Assembly (NCBI RefSeq): GCF_031551385.1
Contig: NZ_JAVBNS010000261.1
Location: 1-28,973, forward strand
DNA length: 28,973 nt
Direction of reading: 5' to 3'
Source of the DNA: Anaerosporobacter sp.
GTDB lineage: Bacteria > Bacillota > Clostridia > Lachnospirales > Lachnospiraceae
The notes under the pieces are model-generated. The model saw only the letters and a program-made list of their open reading frames with translations, had not been told where the DNA came from and did no database searches. Both the position numbers and the translations under genes were made by a program. Positions 5,210 through 23,079 of this stretch are shown in pieces (the stretch's first letter is position 1; each line of letters begins with the position of its first letter).

Positions 5210-7171
5210 TTAGCAGATCTCTGCTCCAGATGGCATCTTCTTCTCAGGTACCATAAGTGCTAATTCACCGTTCTCATCTTCTGCACATAAAAGCATACCT
5301 TCTGATAAAACACCTGCTAGTTTTGCTGGTTTTAAGTTTACTAATACCATAACCTTTTTACCAACCATCTCTTCTGGTGTATAATATGCTTTAATTCCAG
5401 ATACGATTTGTTTTACTTGGCTACCAATCTTAACTTGTGAGCAAAGTAATTTCTTTGATTTCTTCACTTCTTCACAGGCAATGATTTCACCAACTTGGAA
5501 CTGCATCTTCATAAAATCATCATATTCGATTTCATCTTTTGCTTCAATATCAATTCCTGGTTCTTCCTCTTTTTGTGGTTCAGCATCTGTCATTTGTTCT
5601 GCTCTCATCTCTTCCACTTTCTTTATAACTTCCTCTAAATCAAGTCTTTGGAATAGAATCTCTGGAGTCTTTGTTACTTCATTTCCAGATGGATAGTTTC
5701 CGTATTCTTTCATCTCTTCCATAGAACGAGCAGTTGTATTTAATTGAGAAAGAATCTTTGATGAAGTTTCAGGCATGAATGATTCTAATAAACTTGCTCC
5801 AATGCAGATTGATTCCACTAAGTTATATAAAACAGTCTCTAATCTTGCTTTGTTGCTTTCGTCTTTCGCAAGTGCCCAAGGCATTGTCTCATCAATGTAT
5901 TTGTTACAACGTTTGAATAATGTAAATATTTCAGAGATGGCATCTGCAACACGTAATTTATCCATCTTCTCTACTACTTTATTTGGTGTCTGTAATGCAA
6001 GACTGATTAATTCATCATCAACGTCTTCTTTTACTCCCGCATTATTAACTACGCCTTCAAAATATTTGTTAGACATAGATATTGTACGATTAACTAAGTT
6101 ACCAAGTGTATTGGCAAGGTCAGAGTTCATTCTCTCAACCATGAGTTCCCATGTGATAACACCATCATTATCGAATGGCATTTCATGTAAAACAAAATAA
6201 CGCACCGCATCTACACCAAAGAAATCAACTAAATCATCTGGATAAAGCACATTTCCCTTTGATTTACTCATCTTTCCGTCACCTTGTAATAACCAAGGAT
6301 GACCAAAGATTTGTTTTGGCAATGGTAATTCAAGTGCCATTAACATGATTGGCCAATAAATGGTATGAAAACGTAAGATATCCTTACCGATTAAGTGTAA
6401 ATCTGCTGGCCAGTATTTCGCATAATTGTCACCATTGTTTCCATCAACATCATATCCAAGCCCTGTGATGTAGTTGCTTAGTGCATCAAGCCATACATAT
6501 ACAACATGTCTGTTGTCAAAGTCTACTGGGATTCCCCATTTGAATGATGTTCTTGATACACACAAATCTTGAAGTCCAGCTAAGATAAAGTTGTTCATCA
6601 TTTCATTCTTTCTTGACTCTGGTTGAATAAATTCTGGATTCGCATTAATATGCTCAATTAAACGATCTGTGTAATTGCTTAATTTTAAGAAATATGCTTC
6701 TTCCTTTGCTGGTTGGCATTCTCTTCCGCAATCTGGACATTTATTATCAACTAATTGAGATGAAGTAAAGAAAGATTCACATGGTGTACAATACATTCCT
6801 TCATAGAAACCTTTGTAGATATCACCTTTGTCATATAATTTCTTAAAAATCTTCTGTACTTGTTTCTCATGGTCTTTGTCTGTTGTTCGAACGAATTTGT
6901 CATAAGATGTGTTCATCAAATCCCAAATCCCCTTGATTTGACCTGCAACACCATCTACAAATTCTTGTGGTGTAATGCCAGCATCTTCTGCTTTTAATTC
7001 AATCTTTTGACCATGTTCATCTGTTCCTGTTTGGAAATACACATCAAATCCTTGTGCACGTTTAAATCTTGCAATACTATCTGCTAATACGATTTCATAC
7101 GTATTACCAATATGTGGCTTTCCTGATGTATACGCAATCGCTGTACTAATGTAATATGGCTTTTTACTCAT
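5210..7171 (-). CDS. metG: Methionine--tRNA ligase with C-terminal tRNA-binding (Trbp111/EMAP-like) domain
   Basis: It has the class I HIGH motif (KPHIGNTYE), the KMSKS motif (GKMSKSKGN) and a CPDC/CTPC zinc knuckle. The C-terminal part reads QVGEIIACEEVKKSKKLLCSQVKIG. AGGAGG lies upstream of the ATG and a T-box leader lies further upstream. Confidence 0.96.
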   Translation of the reverse strand: MSKKPYYISTAIAYTSGKPHIGNTYEIVLADSIARFKRAQGFDVYFQTGTDEHGQKIELKAEDAGITPQEFVDGVAGQIKGIWDLMNTSYDKFVRTTDKDHEKQVQKIFKKLYDKGDIYKGFYEGMYCTPCESFFTSSQLVDNKCPDCGRECQPAKEEAYFLKLSNYTDRLIEHINANPEFIQPESRKNEMMNNFILAGLQDLCVSRTSFKWGIPVDFDNRHVVYVWLDALSNYITGLGYDVDGNNGDNYAKYWPADLHLIGKDILRFHTIYWPIMLMALELPLPKQIFGHPWLLQGDGKMSKSKGNVLYPDDLVDFFGVDAVRYFVLHEMPFDNDGVITWELMVERMNSDLANTLGNLVNRTISMSNKYFEGVVNNAGVKEDVDDELISLALQTPNKVVEKMDKLRVADAISEIFTLFKRCNKYIDETMPWALAKDESNKARLETVLYNLVESICIGASLLESFMPETSSKILSQLNTTARSMEEMKEYGNYPSGNEVTKTPEILFQRLDLEEVIKKVEEMRAEQMTDAEPQKEEEPGIDIEAKDEIEYDDFMKMQFQVGEIIACEEVKKSKKLLCSQVKIGSQVKQIVSGIKAYYTPEEMVGKKVMVLVNLKPAKLAGVLSEGMLLCAEDENGELALMVPEKKMPSGAEIC

Positions 7172-7280: not shown

Positions 7281-7585
7281 AAAAAAAATCGCCTTTAAAG
7301 AAATCCTATGATTTCATTTAAAGACGAGAATAATCCCGTGATACCACTTTAATTCTTCTATTTTTCACAAAATAGAACTCAGTAACTGCTCTCTTGCCGA
7401 ACAGTCTTGCATGGTAACGGTTGCAGATTCCCGTTGTTCCCTAAAAAGCATATCTCTATAGCCTATTCAGAAACAATGCTCCAAGACCATCTTCCATACA
7501 TTCTGTATTACCTCTTCTCAGCAAAACAAGGCTCTCTGTAGAATCTTCCTGCATGTACTCTTCTCTTCATAGCATTTTCATATTA
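7281..7585 (-). promoter_or_regulatory. T-box riboswitch leader of metG (predicted Met specifier)
   Basis: Read on the minus strand, the T-box sequence AAUUAAAGUGGUAUCACGGGA is the complement of 7334-7354. It is followed by a long terminator hairpin (UCGUCUUUAAAUGAAAUC/GAUUUCUUUAAAGGCGA) plus U8 at 7281-7327. Stem I-like CAGAGAGCC (7530-7538) and GCUGAGAAG (7514-7522) elements are present. AUG triplets at 7499-7501 and 7495-7497 sit where a specifier loop is expected. Confidence 0.85.
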
Positions 7586-7794: not shown

Positions 7795-9006
7795 ATGTCA
7801 TTAATTAATTGCCCTGAGTGTGACAACGAAATATTAGATAAAGTAAAAACCTGTCCACACTGTGGATATTCATTTAAAAAAAGGCTCAAAAAGTTGCAAC
7901 TAATAATAATTGTTTTTGTTATAGTAGTGGTTTTAGGAGGCATCGCTACATTCGTTATACTAAATGTAAACAACAATGTTAAAAATGCACGAAATTGTTA
8001 TAAGTCTGAAAACTTAGACGGTTTTATTAAAATAAAAGCACAGATGTCCACAGAAGAAAAAATAGAATTTGCAGAATATTTAGAAAAACAAGTAGAACTT
8101 ATATTTAATGATTATTTTAACAATACAATTACCTATGTAGAAGTAACAGAAAAGATGAATCATTTAATACAATATAGTCAAAGTTCACTTGTAAGTAATT
8201 ATGAAACAACTTTGAATAAAATTGAAATACTAAATGACTCCCATATCTCTTATGATAACGCAATAAACAATGAAAACAATGGTAATTACGAACAGGCAAT
8301 TGCACTTTATGCCAAAGTAAATGTGAATGATTCTAATTATTCTAATGCAAATGAGAAAATTGAAGCACTAAAATTAAAATTAGTAGAAACATATAGAACT
8401 GAAGCAGAAGAAAACGCCCAAAAAGAAGAGTATGAAAATGCACTTGCACAAATCAATAAAGCTTTAGAATACGATTCCACTAATCAAGAGTTACTAAGTT
8501 CAAAAGAGGACTATACAAAAAAGAAAGAGGCACAAGATAAACTAAAAGAAGAAAATGCAAGAAAGAAAGCATTACTCCATAAAGGAAAGACGATTGAAAC
8601 CATTGCTATAAAAGCCACATTCGAAACTGCAAACATCACCGACAAAATAGTTCCTAATAATACAAACGGTTACTATCTGTATTATAGCCCTTTAGATGAT
8701 TCCAAAGTATATTTAGACATAGTCTTTAGAGTAAAGAATATATCTTCCCATACAATATATTTAGAGAATTTAGTTGCCAGTGTAAAGGCTCTATATGATA
8801 ATCAATACACATATACTTCCTATAATTGCTTTTATTCCGACTCTTCACATATCAACACCGTCTATAGCTGGGATGCTCTTGATGCTTTAGAAGAAACTAC
8901 GTTTCATTTAGCTATTACATTGCCAAAAGAAGTCGGGGAAACTCTGGTTCCTTTAGAGGTTGAATTTTACTTAGATGCCGAGAAACAAATATTAACCTAT
9001 CGATAA
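7795..9006 (+). CDS. Zinc-ribbon / single-pass membrane protein with helical repeat region and C-terminal beta-rich (DUF4352-like) domain, paralog 1
   Basis: GGAAGGAG lies 8 nt upstream of the ATG. The N-terminus has CPECDN...CPHCGY (four-Cys zinc ribbon), then a hydrophobic helix (LQLIIIVFVIVVVLGGIATFVIL). The C-terminus ends PLEVEFYLDAEKQILTYR. It is homologous to the next gene along its whole length. Confidence 0.8.
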   Translation: MSLINCPECDNEILDKVKTCPHCGYSFKKRLKKLQLIIIVFVIVVVLGGIATFVILNVNNNVKNARNCYKSENLDGFIKIKAQMSTEEKIEFAEYLEKQVELIFNDYFNNTITYVEVTEKMNHLIQYSQSSLVSNYETTLNKIEILNDSHISYDNAINNENNGNYEQAIALYAKVNVNDSNYSNANEKIEALKLKLVETYRTEAEENAQKEEYENALAQINKALEYDSTNQELLSSKEDYTKKKEAQDKLKEENARKKALLHKGKTIETIAIKATFETANITDKIVPNNTNGYYLYYSPLDDSKVYLDIVFRVKNISSHTIYLENLVASVKALYDNQYTYTSYNCFYSDSSHINTVYSWDALDALEETTFHLAITLPKEVGETLVPLEVEFYLDAEKQILTYR

Positions 9007-18606: not shown

Positions 18607-18972
18607 TTATGCGGGAAGTACTTCTAACCAATATCCATCTGGATCACTAATAAAATAGATTCCCATAGCAGGGTTTTCAAAACATACACATTCCATCTCT
18701 TTGTGTTTCTTTAAAGCTCCTTCAAAGTCATCTACTACAAAGGCAAGATGAATCTCATTATCTCCTAAATTATAAGGACGATCCCATTCCTTTAACCATG
18801 TAAGTTCTAACTGATGCGGTGTAGTTTCATCTCCAAGATATACCAATATAAAACTTCCATCCTCTGCTTCATGTCTTCTTGTTTCCACAAGTCCCAATGC
18901 TTCTTTGTAAAATGTTAGTGATTTATCAAGATTAAATACGTTTAAATTATTATGTGCAAATGTAAATTTCAT
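18607..18972 (-). CDS. VOC family protein / glyoxalase I-like (lactoylglutathione lyase family)
   Basis: The pattern HNNLNVFNLDKSLTFYKEALGL...HLAF...DPDGYWLEV matches the glyoxalase/VOC fold. I moved the start to the ATG at 18972, which has GGAGG 6 nt upstream. The track start at 18978 is a TTG abutting the SD. Confidence 0.85.
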   Translation of the reverse strand: MKFTFAHNNLNVFNLDKSLTFYKEALGLVETRRHEAEDGSFILVYLGDETTPHQLELTWLKEWDRPYNLGDNEIHLAFVVDDFEGALKKHKEMECVCFENPAMGIYFISDPDGYWLEVLPA

Positions 18973-19050
18973 ATACAACCTCCATCTATATTATGTCTCG
19001 AACAATAACCATTTGAACTCGTTTCAAACTGGAATTATCGTCCTATTAAT

Positions 19051-19079
19051 ATCTTAACATAGCTTCTACTTGATTTCAA
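19051..19079 (-). promoter_or_regulatory. Candidate promoter of the VOC-MarR-DtxR-like operon
   Basis: On the minus strand: TTGAAA (19074-19079), a 17-nt spacer ending in TGT (extended -10), then TAAGAT (19051-19056). A TTTGAA-N5-TTCAAA palindrome at 19012-19028 lies between it and the SD. Confidence 0.5.
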
Positions 19080-19142
19080 ACATAACGTCAAAATTAGTCA
19101 AAATAAATCGGTATTAATTATCACTTTTTCCTCCCATTTACA

Positions 19143-19171
19143 TTGCTTAATCTGATAATAAGTGTTATAAT
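19143..19171 (+). promoter_or_regulatory. Candidate extended -10 promoter of the repeat-motif noncoding unit
   Basis: TTGCTT (19143-19148), a 17-nt spacer ending in TGT, then TATAAT (19166-19171). Confidence 0.45.
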
Positions 19172-19246
19172 AAAACAAGATAAAACATTAAGTTATATTT
19201 CATTAATGCGAGTTACCTAAGATATAATCAACTCCAGATTTTTATA

Positions 19247-19497
19247 ACAAAAGAGCGAACTACTTTCCCCATGATAACACCACCAAAATAGTGTTATGTA
19301 TAAACAAGCCACAAAAGAACAAAATACAAAAGATAAGTTATCAAAGTACAAAAGAATCAAAAAACAAATGAAAAGTTTTACGAAAGACAAAGTTTTAATT
19401 TACTAAAGATGTTTCTACTAAAGATTAACTTTACAAAAGATGTCGTAACTACCAAAGATTACATTTACTAAAGAAAAAATATTTACTGTACAAAAGA
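19247..19497 (+). repeat. Array of 11 dispersed copies of the 8-mer ACNAAAGA (usually TACNAAAGA)
   Basis: Read directly from the sequence. After a 64-nt first gap, start-to-start spacings are 15, 22, 32, 22, 15, 16, 18, 16 and 23 nt. The third position varies (A, G, T or C) while the other seven are invariant. Confidence 0.8.
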
Positions 19498-19510
19498 GAA
19501 CTAATATGAT

Positions 19511-19540
19511 GAGAGGCTATCCGATTGGGTAGCCTCTTTT
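19511..19540 (+). terminator. Intrinsic terminator following the motif array
   Basis: AGAGGCTA(T)CC, loop GATTG, GGTAGCCTCT, then TTTT. The stem is about 10 bp, GC-rich, with one bulge. The T-run is present only on the + strand. Confidence 0.7.
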
Positions 19541-19723
19541 CGTGTGCTGAATCTCCCCGTCGCTGCAAACAATTTATGTGTGCAGTAATGAATCTTACTA
19601 TTATGTTACTTTTGAGCCAATATAATGCAAGAAAATATTTATTTTGTGTGTTATTATGGATGGTAGTGTGACTATTCTTTTTATTGGGAGTCGTTCAAAA
19701 CCAAACAACGGAGGTTCTTTTCA

Positions 19724-20926
19724 TTGAAAGACAAATATCAAAAAACATTATATGCATGTTTTGTAGGTTATGTTGTTCAAGCAATTGTTAACAATTTTGT
19801 TCCTTTGCTTTTCCTTACTTTACAATCAACCTACCATATTTCTTTACCAAAAATAACATTTTTAGTAACAATTAATTTTGGACTACAACTTATTGTGGAT
19901 TTATTATCCATCGGCTTTGTAGATAAAATCGGCTATCGTGCCTCAGCTTTAATTGCTCATGTCTTCACTGCATCTGGATTAATATTATTGACAATTCTTC
20001 CAGATTTATTACCAAATGCCTATGCAGGAATATTCATATCCGTTATAATTTACGCTATCGGTGGTGGGCTCCTTGAAGTGTTAATCAGCCCAATTGTAGA
20101 GGCTTGTCCAACAGATAACAAAGAGAAAGCCATGAGTCTGCTTCACTCCTTCTATTGTTGGGGACATGTAGGTGTTGTACTATTATCTACAATATTCTTT
20201 GCTGTTTTCGGTATACATAACTGGAAGGTGCTTGCTATCTTCTGGGCTATCATTCCGATAATAAATGTATTTGCATTTGCTAAAGTTCCAATCGCGTCTC
20301 TTATCGAGGAGGATGAAACTAGCTTACGTATTAAAGACCTTGCTCATGCAAAAATCTTCTGGGTTTTAATGCTTCTTATGGTTTGTGCTGGTGCATGCGA
20401 GCAAGCTGTAAGCCAATGGGCATCTACTTTCGCAGAAAAGGGATTACAAGTTAGCAAAACGGTTGGCGACCTTGCTGGCCCAATGTTATTCGCTATCCTT
20501 ATGGGAACTTCTCGTGCCATATACGGAAAATACGGTCATAAGATAAATCTGAATCGCTTTATGTTACTCAGTGGTTTCACTTGTATCGTATCCTACCTTG
20601 TTATATCACTTTCTCCCTATCCATTCCTTGGACTTATAGGTTGTGGTTTATGCGGTTTATCTGTAGGTATCTTATGGCCAGGAACATTCAGCATCGCTTC
20701 CGCTTCAATACGAGGTGGCGGAACTGCTATGTTTGCACTCCTCGCTCTTGCTGGTGACCTTGGTTGTTCTGGCGGCCCGACGTTTGTTGGTTTAGTATCC
20801 AGTGCTTTTTCTGATAACTTGAAAGCAGGAATTTTGGGGGCTATTGTGTTTCCTGTGCTTCTTATTCTTGGGATTTGGATGCTTGGAAGGATGCGAAAAA
20901 CGACGATTAAAAATTCAGAAGTTTAA
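19724..20926 (+). CDS. MFS transporter
   Basis: 400 aa with about 12 hydrophobic segments and a central loop (EEDETSLRIKDL). The start is TTG, with GGAGG 9 nt upstream, and there is no nearby in-frame ATG. Confidence 0.85.
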   Translation: MKDKYQKTLYACFVGYVVQAIVNNFVPLLFLTLQSTYHISLPKITFLVTINFGLQLIVDLLSIGFVDKIGYRASALIAHVFTASGLILLTILPDLLPNAYAGIFISVIIYAIGGGLLEVLISPIVEACPTDNKEKAMSLLHSFYCWGHVGVVLLSTIFFAVFGIHNWKVLAIFWAIIPIINVFAFAKVPIASLIEEDETSLRIKDLAHAKIFWVLMLLMVCAGACEQAVSQWASTFAEKGLQVSKTVGDLAGPMLFAILMGTSRAIYGKYGHKINLNRFMLLSGFTCIVSYLVISLSPYPFLGLIGCGLCGLSVGILWPGTFSIASASIRGGGTAMFALLALAGDLGCSGGPTFVGLVSSAFSDNLKAGILGAIVFPVLLILGIWMLGRMRKTTIKNSEV

Positions 20927-21457: not shown

Positions 21458-22999
21458 TCACAAAATCACTTCAAAAAGCTTCTTATCCTCAACCGTTACC
21501 CAATCTGAAGATTTTTCTTTGCTTTTATTGAAATTAAATACCAATAAATATCCAATATCTATATTCTGAATGTGCAGATATCTTGCTAATTGCTCTCTAC
21601 CTTTTTCATGATATTTCTCACCATTCCAGAGCTTGAGTTCAACTATATATTTATGTTTGTTGTATATAACAACTACATCCAGACGCCTGTTCTCTCTTGT
21701 CTGTGGCTCTACAAAGTAAAATCCTTTTCCATTTAATATGGGTTTTAAGTAAGCAAGAAAGATAAGCCTTCCTTGAGACTCATAAAACTTTTCATCCTCA
21801 CTTCGATACTCCTCGTACATAAAGTCCTGAAACTTTAGAAGTATACGCTCCATATCCAAATCATCTGCTTTCGTAAACTGGTTTAATTCATTTTCTGATA
21901 TTCGAACTTGTAGTTTTCGTATATTACTTTTCTCTGTCATATAGCCATAAATAAGCTCCTCGAAAATCTTATTATGAATTACAACTTTGCCTTTATCATT
22001 TCTAAATATTCCATACATAATTCCTGCTTCATATGAGAAAGGATGAAAGCTGATATGACTGCCAGATAGAAGTAACTCATTAGTTACTGATTTAATATCC
22101 TCATTGTTTTCAATGTTCTTAATCACATCTTCAAATAAAGTATTCTTTTCATTCAAAATAGCTTTGACCGCCATATAGATACTTTCTTCTGTCCAAACAG
22201 CACCCAGCTTTTCATCCACAGTTTTACAGATGTCACTTACCAAATAAGGATATCCACTTGTAAACATATGAATTTGTTCTGCAATCGCATTTACATCAAA
22301 ACCAATACCAGTCTCCGACTGATAGTCAAGTAACATACTTCCTATTTCGTGAGCATTAAAAGACATATCAACTTCAAACTTAGCTGCTATATTCCACGGG
22401 CTGTTGAATCTTTTATCACTCTCATCACGCATTGCAAGCTTTAATGTTCTTACATCGTGTACTCCAGCCAAAATAACACTTTGAAATGTAAAATCTTTAT
22501 TTGCACTCGCAGACAGATATTTATTCCTAAGCACTCCAAGGAATTGTAGAAATATTCTGTTATTGCTACTCTTATCTACCTCATCAATAAGCAAAACTAT
22601 TTTTTTCCGTGATTCCAATACAAATTCGGTGATAGCATCAGAAAGCTCTCCAAAATTTTTCGATGTATTGTACTTTAATAAAAGTTGATGCGTCTCCTTG
22701 TCTGTAAATCTTATGGAGTCCGCAAAGGTTTTAAACACTCTTTTGCAAAATCCTTCTTCTGTATCAAATAAATTATCACCAACACCTTCAAAACTGCTAT
22801 CAATTACTGCATATTTTTCAGAAAGCGCTTCTCGTAAAACATTAAGAGTAGTGGTTTTACCAAACTGTCTAGGGCGATTTATGGTAAAGTATTCTCCCTC
22901 ATCTACCATAGTCACAATTTGCTCTATTTTATCTGATATGTCTACCATATAATGCTTATCCTTAACGCATAAGCCTGTTATGTTAAATTTCTTTTTCAT
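21458..22999 (-). CDS. Fusion protein: N-terminal predicted AAA-ATPase (P-loop) and C-terminal PD-(D/E)XK nuclease-like domain
   Basis: Walker A is RPRQFGKTTT and Walker B is VLLIDEVD. The C-terminus RLDVVVIYNKHKYIVELKLW gives the D...ExK signature. The architecture matches the widespread AAA-ATPase_like + PDDEXK_9 type (assigned from memory). I moved the start to the ATG at 22999, which has GTGAGGT 8 nt upstream. Confidence 0.8.
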   Translation of the reverse strand: MKKKFNITGLCVKDKHYMVDISDKIEQIVTMVDEGEYFTINRPRQFGKTTTLNVLREALSEKYAVIDSSFEGVGDNLFDTEEGFCKRVFKTFADSIRFTDKETHQLLLKYNTSKNFGELSDAITEFVLESRKKIVLLIDEVDKSSNNRIFLQFLGVLRNKYLSASANKDFTFQSVILAGVHDVRTLKLAMRDESDKRFNSPWNIAAKFEVDMSFNAHEIGSMLLDYQSETGIGFDVNAIAEQIHMFTSGYPYLVSDICKTVDEKLGAVWTEESIYMAVKAILNEKNTLFEDVIKNIENNEDIKSVTNELLLSGSHISFHPFSYEAGIMYGIFRNDKGKVVIHNKIFEELIYGYMTEKSNIRKLQVRISENELNQFTKADDLDMERILLKFQDFMYEEYRSEDEKFYESQGRLIFLAYLKPILNGKGFYFVEPQTRENRRLDVVVIYNKHKYIVELKLWNGEKYHEKGREQLARYLHIQNIDIGYLLVFNFNKSKEKSSDWVTVEDKKLFEVIL

Positions 23000-23079
23000 A
23001 TGGTTTACCTCACTTTCAAAGAACTTCTTCATACACTACATATATCATACCAAAGCAAAGCCATAAAACCAACCATTTC

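Follow-up and report, generated by a model that had tools for sequence, protein, structure and literature searches.

In the genome of Anaerosporobacter sp. (Lachnospiraceae), a stretch of 28,973 nucleotides (nt), here called the window and used for all coordinates, contains a gap of 745 base pairs (bp) at 18979-19723. On one side of the gap, on the minus strand, lies a VOC/glyoxalase gene (18607-18972), followed by genes for a MarR regulator, a small DtxR/MntR-type repressor and a transglutaminase-like protein. On the other side an MFS transporter gene begins on the plus strand (19724-20926; match to Pfam MFS_1 with 5e-24). Within the gap a promoter, an array of a short repeated motif and a GC-rich terminal hairpin follow each other on the plus strand, and the MFS gene starts 184 nt downstream of this unit. 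On the comparative sequence evidence the unit is best described as a new, narrowly distributed family of predicted small RNAs (sRNAs) with a novel multi-copy single-stranded motif.

Motif array and its conservation

The array (19247-19497, plus strand) was delimited by copy counts, shuffles, a logo and aligned orthologous sites. It comprises eleven exact copies of the type (U)ACNAAAGA(W), in which ACNAAAGA starts at 19247, 19311, 19326, 19348, 19380, 19402, 19417, 19433, 19451, 19467 and 19490; a pattern count confirmed all of these starts, which had been listed in the original prediction made from the sequence alone. In the whole window, both strands taken together, ACNAAAGA occurs 19 times compared with 5.8 +/- 2.4 times in dinucleotide shuffles, a number reached by none of 100 shuffles, and 11 of the 19 matches fall within 250 nt. 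When the unit was shuffled against its own A-rich composition, the eleven observed copies stood against 0.25 +/- 0.49 expected ones, with a maximum of three in 2000 shuffles, which puts a figure to the earlier judgement that the copy number lies far beyond chance. Across 83 kb of Anaerosporobacter sequence, only 12 occurrences of TACNAAAGA were encountered outside the units, each in a context that looks coding.

Nine distinct homologues are available, namely the window, L001, L101, L104, L105 (A. faecicola), L106/L107, L116-L118, L119 and L120. They come from a search of GTDB anchored on the MFS protein (one genome per species), from a search anchored on the VOC protein and from a metagenome scan. 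The repeats are kept in nine of nine orthologous loci, with 11, 5, 4, 4, 8, 7, 4, 6 and 5 exact copies where 0.10-0.25 would be expected. In addition, the relaxed pattern UAC-N-W-A-D-GA has 5-10 sites in each homologue, compared with 0.1 expected. One such relaxed copy, UACCUAAGA in the window and UACUUAAGA in most relatives, is located in the 5' domain of the unit (19214-19222, plus strand; alignment columns 45-53). The count of eleven therefore holds for the window but not as a trait of the family, because three of the eleven copies (19417, 19433 and 19467) are without counterpart in the other homologues and represent lineage-specific tandem additions.

The logo of 54 copies reads U (45/54) - A - C - N - A - A - A - G - A - (A/U), so that the T noted earlier in front of most copies precedes most copies across the homologues as well. 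The commonest form is UACNAAAGA(A/U) and the relaxed form is UAC-N-(A/U)-A-(A/G/U)-GA. At aligned orthologous sites UAC and GA are almost invariant, AAAGA is in some cases replaced by AAGGA, AAUGA or UAAGA, and N at one and the same site can be A, U, G or C depending on the species. Mean pairwise identity over six well-aligned orthologous sites, in an alignment partly anchored on the motif, amounts to 0.90 for the fixed positions, 0.67 for the spacer columns and 0.51 for N (Mann-Whitney p = 2e-5). The copies are thus conserved while the spacers drift, as a proposed check on the original prediction had envisaged. Even L105, the most divergent homologue and otherwise hard to align, has kept eight exact copies. 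Judged from these comparisons, the motif is under purifying selection and its position 3 is free. A freely varying internal base suggests recognition by a protein, which it would fit better than pairing with one defined partner.

All copies in the array lie on the transcribed plus strand, 70-330 nt inside the unit between promoter and terminator. Their spacing in the window is 15, 16, 18, 22, 23, 32 or 64 nt, and this irregular pattern (15-64 nt) differs between species as a result of indels and whole-unit duplications; L001, for example, has one 18-nt unit more than L101. The repeat finder TRF reported a weak array of period 34 with 2.5 imperfect copies and 80% match, found in the window only. 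A helically phased DNA array is disfavoured because the copies are one-stranded and their irregular spacing is driven by indels and duplication.

Predicted transcript and genomic context

The promoter at 19143-19171 (plus strand) was read directly from the sequence. It consists of a -35 element TTGCTT (19143-19148), a 17-nt spacer and a -10 element TATAAT (19166-19171) with TGT directly upstream. The earlier reading of these elements was exact, and their geometry is kept in nine of nine homologues as TTGnnT-17-TATAAT with a perfect TATAAT. Both the promoter and the terminator escaped a simple consensus scan, as the -35 element is weak (three of six consensus positions) and the U-tract is short. 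The predicted transcript, taken from the conserved promoter to the terminal hairpin (19178-19542, plus strand), would be about 365 nt long (262-423 nt in relatives) with 46% A and 13% G. Its conserved 5' end, A(A/G)AACAAGATAAA(AC) at 19172-19185 (plus strand), contains an AGATAAA that is invariant in nine of nine homologues.

Two small hairpins are predicted upstream of or between the motif copies. The 5' hairpin (19186-19208, plus strand) has the form CAUUAA-loop-UUAAUG, and in seven homologues its stem is invariant and its loop 3-14 nt long; the 5' domain is entirely missing from L001 and L101. No covariation in this stem was found in the comparison of the seven homologues, and its support is weak. 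The internal hairpin (19274-19297, plus strand; AUAACAC / GUGUUAU) is the only internal helix of the RNAalifold consensus (columns 111-126). A small hairpin of this kind is present in eight of nine homologues, in the relatives as AUCACAG / CUGUGUU and in the window as a different yet complementary stem, and is absent in L105. Inside the array itself the RNAalifold consensus shows no structure. Partition-function folding gave an unpaired probability of 0.74 at motif positions compared with 0.52 in the rest of the body; for the array of the window the two values are 0.66 and 0.55.

The unit ends in a GC-rich hairpin of 12 bp with the loop GAUU followed by UUUU (19511-19540, plus strand), recognised by folding and by comparison of the homologues. 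Together with flanking pairs that extend the 12 bp, the hairpin (19511-19538) reaches -26.7 kcal/mol (z = -7.9). A GC-rich hairpin had correctly been proposed at this place; the T-tract said to follow it is restricted to TTTT (19537-19540). Every homologue possesses a terminal hairpin (-18 to -32 kcal/mol, z between -5 and -8). These hairpins represent three unrelated sequences, so that the position was kept while the sequence was replaced twice. The element is predicted to act as an intrinsic terminator or as a 3' protective stem.

A coding origin of the unit was considered and rejected. The longest open reading frame (ORF) in the gap has 57 amino acids (aa), in line with the earlier statement that none of 60 aa or more is present. 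Moreover, a 36-aa ORF on the plus strand and the 57-aa ORF on the minus strand are not conserved, and indels between homologues, with lengths that are not multiples of three, break the frames. A mini-ORF of four codons (ATG-NNN-NNN-ACY-stop, 19186-19222) is seen in six of the seven homologues in which the 5' domain is present. It is probably incidental, as it lacks a Shine-Dalgarno sequence and overlaps both the stem of the hairpin and the relaxed motif copy (UACUUAAGA). With boundaries and array conserved in nine homologues and no conserved ORF, the proposed noncoding unit from promoter to terminator is supported by the comparison.

In nine of nine homologues the unit and the VOC-MarR-DtxR-transglutaminase operon are arranged divergently. 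The promoter of this operon, TTGAAA-17-TAAGAT with TG upstream (19051-19079, minus strand), was called by the consensus promoter scan, and its block ATCTTAACATAGCTT....TGATTTCAAA is almost invariant in the nine homologues. Midway between the two promoters lies an imperfect palindrome, GTATTAATTATCAC (19111-19124), as a conserved block in the nine homologues; in L120 the palindrome is perfect (GTAATAATTATTAC). We infer that this palindrome may be an operator, at which the neighbouring MarR or DtxR/MntR-type regulator would act. In the 5' untranslated region of the VOC gene the window carries an insertion of about 46 nt (about 18989-19036) with the inverted repeat TTTGAA-ctcgt-TTCAAA inside. It is absent from seven of the eight other homologues, and L105 has a shorter, dissimilar insert there.

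On the opposite side the genomic context is variable. A co-directional MFS gene follows the unit in two of nine homologues (window and L106/L107), a convergent ABC-2 permease gene in L104, L105, L116, L119 and L120, and a convergent aminotransferase gene in L001 and L101. The search with the MFS protein in GTDB yielded 80 loci. An array was present in L001 only (MFS identity 87%), where it is situated beside the VOC gene, 3.7 kb from the MFS gene and with two opposite-strand genes downstream; the 79 other MFS loci (66-72% identity) contained no array. Because the downstream gene varies, being MFS in 2/9 and convergent in 7/9 homologues, the unit is, by its synteny, an autonomous element and not an MFS leader. 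The synteny does not support the earlier framing of the unit by the MFS gene downstream, for which it might have been a leader or attenuator, and the element is to be annotated with the VOC-MarR-DtxR side of the locus, with which it travels, rather than with the transporter.

The distribution of the unit is narrow. A metagenome scan with GCCACAAAAGANCAAAATAC gave 20 matches, among which L101 was the sole true homologue and the others were due to chance. VOC homologues of up to 85% identity and with other synteny (P0017, P0019, P0024 and P0041) lacked the unit, and an nhmmer search with the alignment of nine sequences against about 240 loci detected no paralogues or distant homologues beyond the orthologous loci. 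BLASTN against plasmids and phages gave no match to the unit. As far as sampled, it is confined to one genus-level clade, Anaerosporobacter and close Lachnospiraceae.

Several other features of these loci are recorded here. Directly downstream of the MFS gene the window encodes a protein of 524 aa with AAA-ATPase_like and PD-(D/E)XK (PDDEXK_3) domains (21458-23032, minus strand); its gene is missing at that position in L106/L107, where an aminotransferase gene directly follows the MFS gene. Just past the sRNA terminator of L105 there is a tandem repeat of TATATTTCTCATATCTT (about 16-17 nt, at least five copies) at about 2232-2360 on the minus strand (640-769 in the reverse complement), which directly adjoins the convergent ABC permease gene at its 3' end. 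A TwoAYGGAY RNA (RF01731, 70.2 bits) is found in L001 at 7863-8026 (plus strand), about 1.7 kb past the end of the MFS gene. Finally, a full-length T-box leader (RF00230, 110.5 bits) is located in the window at 7317-7579 (minus strand), upstream of a minus-strand ORF of 653 aa (5210-7171) which we presume to encode an aminoacyl-tRNA synthetase.

Comparison with known RNA and DNA systems

A scan of the window and seven homologous loci with Rfam 15 at the gathering threshold gave no match in the unit, in agreement with the earlier statement that no named RNA family could be recognised. A permissive scan of 18950-19800 returned four sub-threshold matches only (GibS, BTnc060, Phe_leader and AbsR25), the best being GibS with 28.8 bits compared with a gathering score of 115. 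These matches are read as reflecting the terminator hairpin. Nothing relevant to the unit was found in the literature.

The layout had been likened to that of protein-titrating sRNAs, and the comparative data support this. Like CsrB/CsrC and RsmX/Y/Z of Gammaproteobacteria, the unit would be a stand-alone sRNA that has a promoter and an intrinsic terminator of its own but no coding potential, which here is a sequence-based statement. Further common traits are the many copies of a short motif (7-22 there, 5-11 here), a motif that is the sole strongly conserved element, a variable copy number and the presumed titration of an RNA-binding protein. However, the motif is UACNAAAGA and not A(N)GGA, and the test for GGA was negative: it occurs 0 times in the unit of the window and 1-5 times in relatives, in none of the nine units above shuffles. 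Furthermore, the copies are predicted to lie in unstructured RNA, whereas those of CsrB and RsmZ are mostly presented in hairpin loops. CsrA of Firmicutes is antagonised by the protein FliW, and we know of no CsrA-sponge sRNA in this phylum. What we take to be the SELEX (systematic evolution of ligands by exponential enrichment) consensus of CsrA, RUACARGGAUGU, loosely resembles the motif, but the register of the motif is one nucleotide longer and in most copies the essential GGA is AGA, so that the resemblance is a mere lead.

Closest in composition are CrcZ, CrcY and CrcX of Pseudomonas, sponges for Hfq/Crc that are about 400 nt long and present several single-stranded, A-rich copies of their motif. 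Their motifs, AANAANAA or (ARN)n, are read by the distal face of Hfq and are not enriched here. AANAANAA occurs 1-8 times per unit where 1.6-4.0 are expected, (ARN)x4 is missing from six of nine units, and (ARN)3-4 shows no enrichment. In addition, an ARN register would accommodate neither the C that is invariant in position 2 nor the GA in positions 7-8.

The second model of the original prediction, the trp leader bound by TRAP in Bacillus, shares with the unit a short motif in multiple copies on one RNA strand, eleven of them in the window, and a terminator at the end. The analogy fails on motif and spacing. TRAP binds 9-11 (G/U)AG triplets 2-3 nt apart, whereas here 4-11 copies of a 9-10-nt motif are 15-64 nt apart and UAG/GAG triplets are at or below the shuffle expectation in the nine units. 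Moreover, the trp 5' leader switches between antiterminator and terminator, while here no alternative structure is predicted and usually no gene on the same strand follows.

Type III antitoxin RNAs (ToxI, CptI and TenpI) show the same order of promoter, direct repeats and Rho-independent terminator, and cptIN occurs in Lachnospiraceae. However, they contain 2-5.5 near-identical repeats of 34-45 nt, whereas only a core of 9-10 nt is common to the copies described here. Furthermore, a toxin gene is located directly downstream of the antitoxin, while here an MFS or a convergent gene follows and never one for a ToxN-like endoribonuclease.

Iterons of plasmids and phages are uniform repeats beside an initiator gene, in contrast to the irregular spacing, the chromosomal synteny and the lack of a rep gene at this locus. 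A scan of viral contigs for three spaced copies of the motif yielded either coding repeats (periods 9, 18, 21 and 27) or genuine iterons with identical spacers, both unrelated to the unit. In the IMG/VR contigs L174 (100-800) and L216 (5400-6100) there are arrays of cttACCAAAGAca whose copies are inverted where they precede a gene and direct where they apparently lie within that gene. Tandem units that are perfect, 15-23 nt long and terminated by ACAAAAGA occur in L215, L208 and L186. All of these are classic iteron-like DNA arrays and not related to the unit of the window.

Pairing between the motif and the 16S rRNA 3' end was also rejected. With what we take to be the sequence of B. subtilis, AAAGA would need UCUUU, which is not contained in CCUCCUUUCU, and only the minority AAGGA variants resemble a Shine-Dalgarno sequence. 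By these comparisons, each made at the level of the sequence motif, the unit fails the defining motif test of every known family considered.

Possible functions of the unit

It is likely that the unit is a stand-alone non-coding RNA gene. That this RNA is specifically a protein sponge, i.e. a multivalent decoy for a single-strand RNA-binding protein, is our preferred proposal, although a tentative one. According to it, a transcript of about 260-420 nt would be made from a sigma-A-type promoter that points away from the VOC-MarR-DtxR operon. This RNA would combine a conserved, short 5' end and one or two small hairpins with a long, A-rich and essentially unstructured body, and it would end in a strong terminator hairpin. 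The body would display 5-10 single-stranded copies of UAC-N-(A/U)-A-(A/G/U)-GA, mostly UACNAAAGA(A/U). Many molecules of a sequence-specific single-strand RNA-binding protein could be held by one RNA and drawn off their mRNA targets, after the manner of CsrB/RsmZ for CsrA or of CrcZ for Hfq/Crc. The MarR or MntR-type regulator of the operon may control the unit, a possibility that arises because of the palindrome between the two promoters. We infer transcription, action at the RNA rather than the DNA level, binding of a protein and control by the neighbouring regulators from the sequence comparisons. For function at the RNA level speak the location of the copies on the transcribed strand, 70-330 nt inside the unit, their irregular spacing, the conservation of only 9-10 nt and the predicted single-strandedness.

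A number of points weigh against a protein decoy. Promoter and terminator are predictions; the -35 element is weak and the U-tract is interrupted in several homologues. The contrast between motif and spacer is inflated by the anchoring of the alignment in the repetitive region. Some orthologous copies are decayed (ACAAATGA, ACATAGGA) and the copy number ranges from 4 to 11, so that no individual site would be essential. The family is narrow, about one genus, and part of the conservation stems from short divergence times. No RNA-binding specificity can be named for the motif, and no gene for a candidate binding protein is encoded near the unit. Finally, the sequence alone would fit binding to DNA as well as to RNA.

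Among the other explanations, a base-pairing sRNA with a reiterated seed fares best, and it is unlikely. Here the copies of UACNAAAGA would pair with UCUUUNGUA in mRNAs or sponge another RNA. The evidence for a stand-alone unit serves this explanation equally, the motifs are predicted to be accessible, and multi-seed sRNAs such as LhrC and RsaE with their C-rich repeats exist. On the other hand, position 3 is free both among copies and at orthologous sites, which is not expected for a fixed partner, and an A/U-rich duplex of 8 nt with an internal mismatch would be weak. Unlike the known multi-seed sRNAs, it shows complementarity neither to the anti-Shine-Dalgarno nor to the Shine-Dalgarno sequence in its motif. 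No 5' untranslated region containing UCUUUNGUA was found in 83 kb, a small sample.

Also unlikely is an array acting at the DNA level, in which the copies would be double-stranded sites for a transcription factor or a nucleoid-associated protein, as operator, decoy, roadblock or iteron-like element. The binder could be the neighbouring MarR, DtxR or AraC regulator, the adjoining operon encodes two DNA-binding regulators, and some viral contigs do harbour true iteron arrays in which ACNAAAGA is contained (L174 and L216; others in L215 and L208). However, all copies have one orientation and stay within the unit between promoter and terminator, there is no phasing of 10.5 bp, and the spacing varies between species. 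True iterons have identical units, whereas here the spacers around the conserved 9-10 nt are unrelated. Palindromes are the binding sites of MarR and DtxR proteins, and one that is conserved and separate from the repeats is already present between the promoters. Neither a rep gene nor similarity to plasmids or phages was found.

Very improbable is a by-product without function, left in a dispensable intergenic spacer when a unit of 15-18 nt slipped or was duplicated in tandem. Copy changes by whole units, as between L001 and L101 (18 nt) and in the three extra copies of the window, and the weak period-34 array are in its favour. However, neutral decay would hit motif and spacer alike, in contrast to the observed identities of 0.90 and 0.67 (0.51 for N), L105 retains its eight exact copies in poorly alignable sequence, and the array is framed by a conserved promoter, 5' end and terminal hairpin. 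Least probable, and by synteny already largely refuted, is an MFS leader or attenuator in which a protein on the repeats would control read-through of the terminator at 19511-19540 into the MFS gene at 19724: the same-strand MFS gene 184 nt downstream in the window and its counterpart in L106/L107, as well as a short U-tract that makes some read-through plausible, stand against an intact unit with a convergent gene in seven of nine homologues, an MFS gene 3.7 kb away past two opposite-strand genes in L001, 79 other MFS loci without an array and no predicted alternative antiterminator structure.

Post-transcriptional regulation in gut Lachnospiraceae is almost unexplored, and to our knowledge no protein-titrating sRNA has been reported in Firmicutes. 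It is possible, if doubtful, that the unit is the first protein-sponge sRNA to be described in the Lachnospiraceae or Firmicutes, that UACNAAAGA is the code of an unrecognised RNA-binding regulator of gut Clostridia, and that a MarR/MntR-type switch places a post-transcriptional regulon under the influence of stress or metal. With a single-stranded 9-mer in many copies as the one feature under strong selection, such an sRNA would be a ready bait for a new RNA-binding regulator, and once such a regulator has been identified, the motif could be used to predict its mRNA targets.

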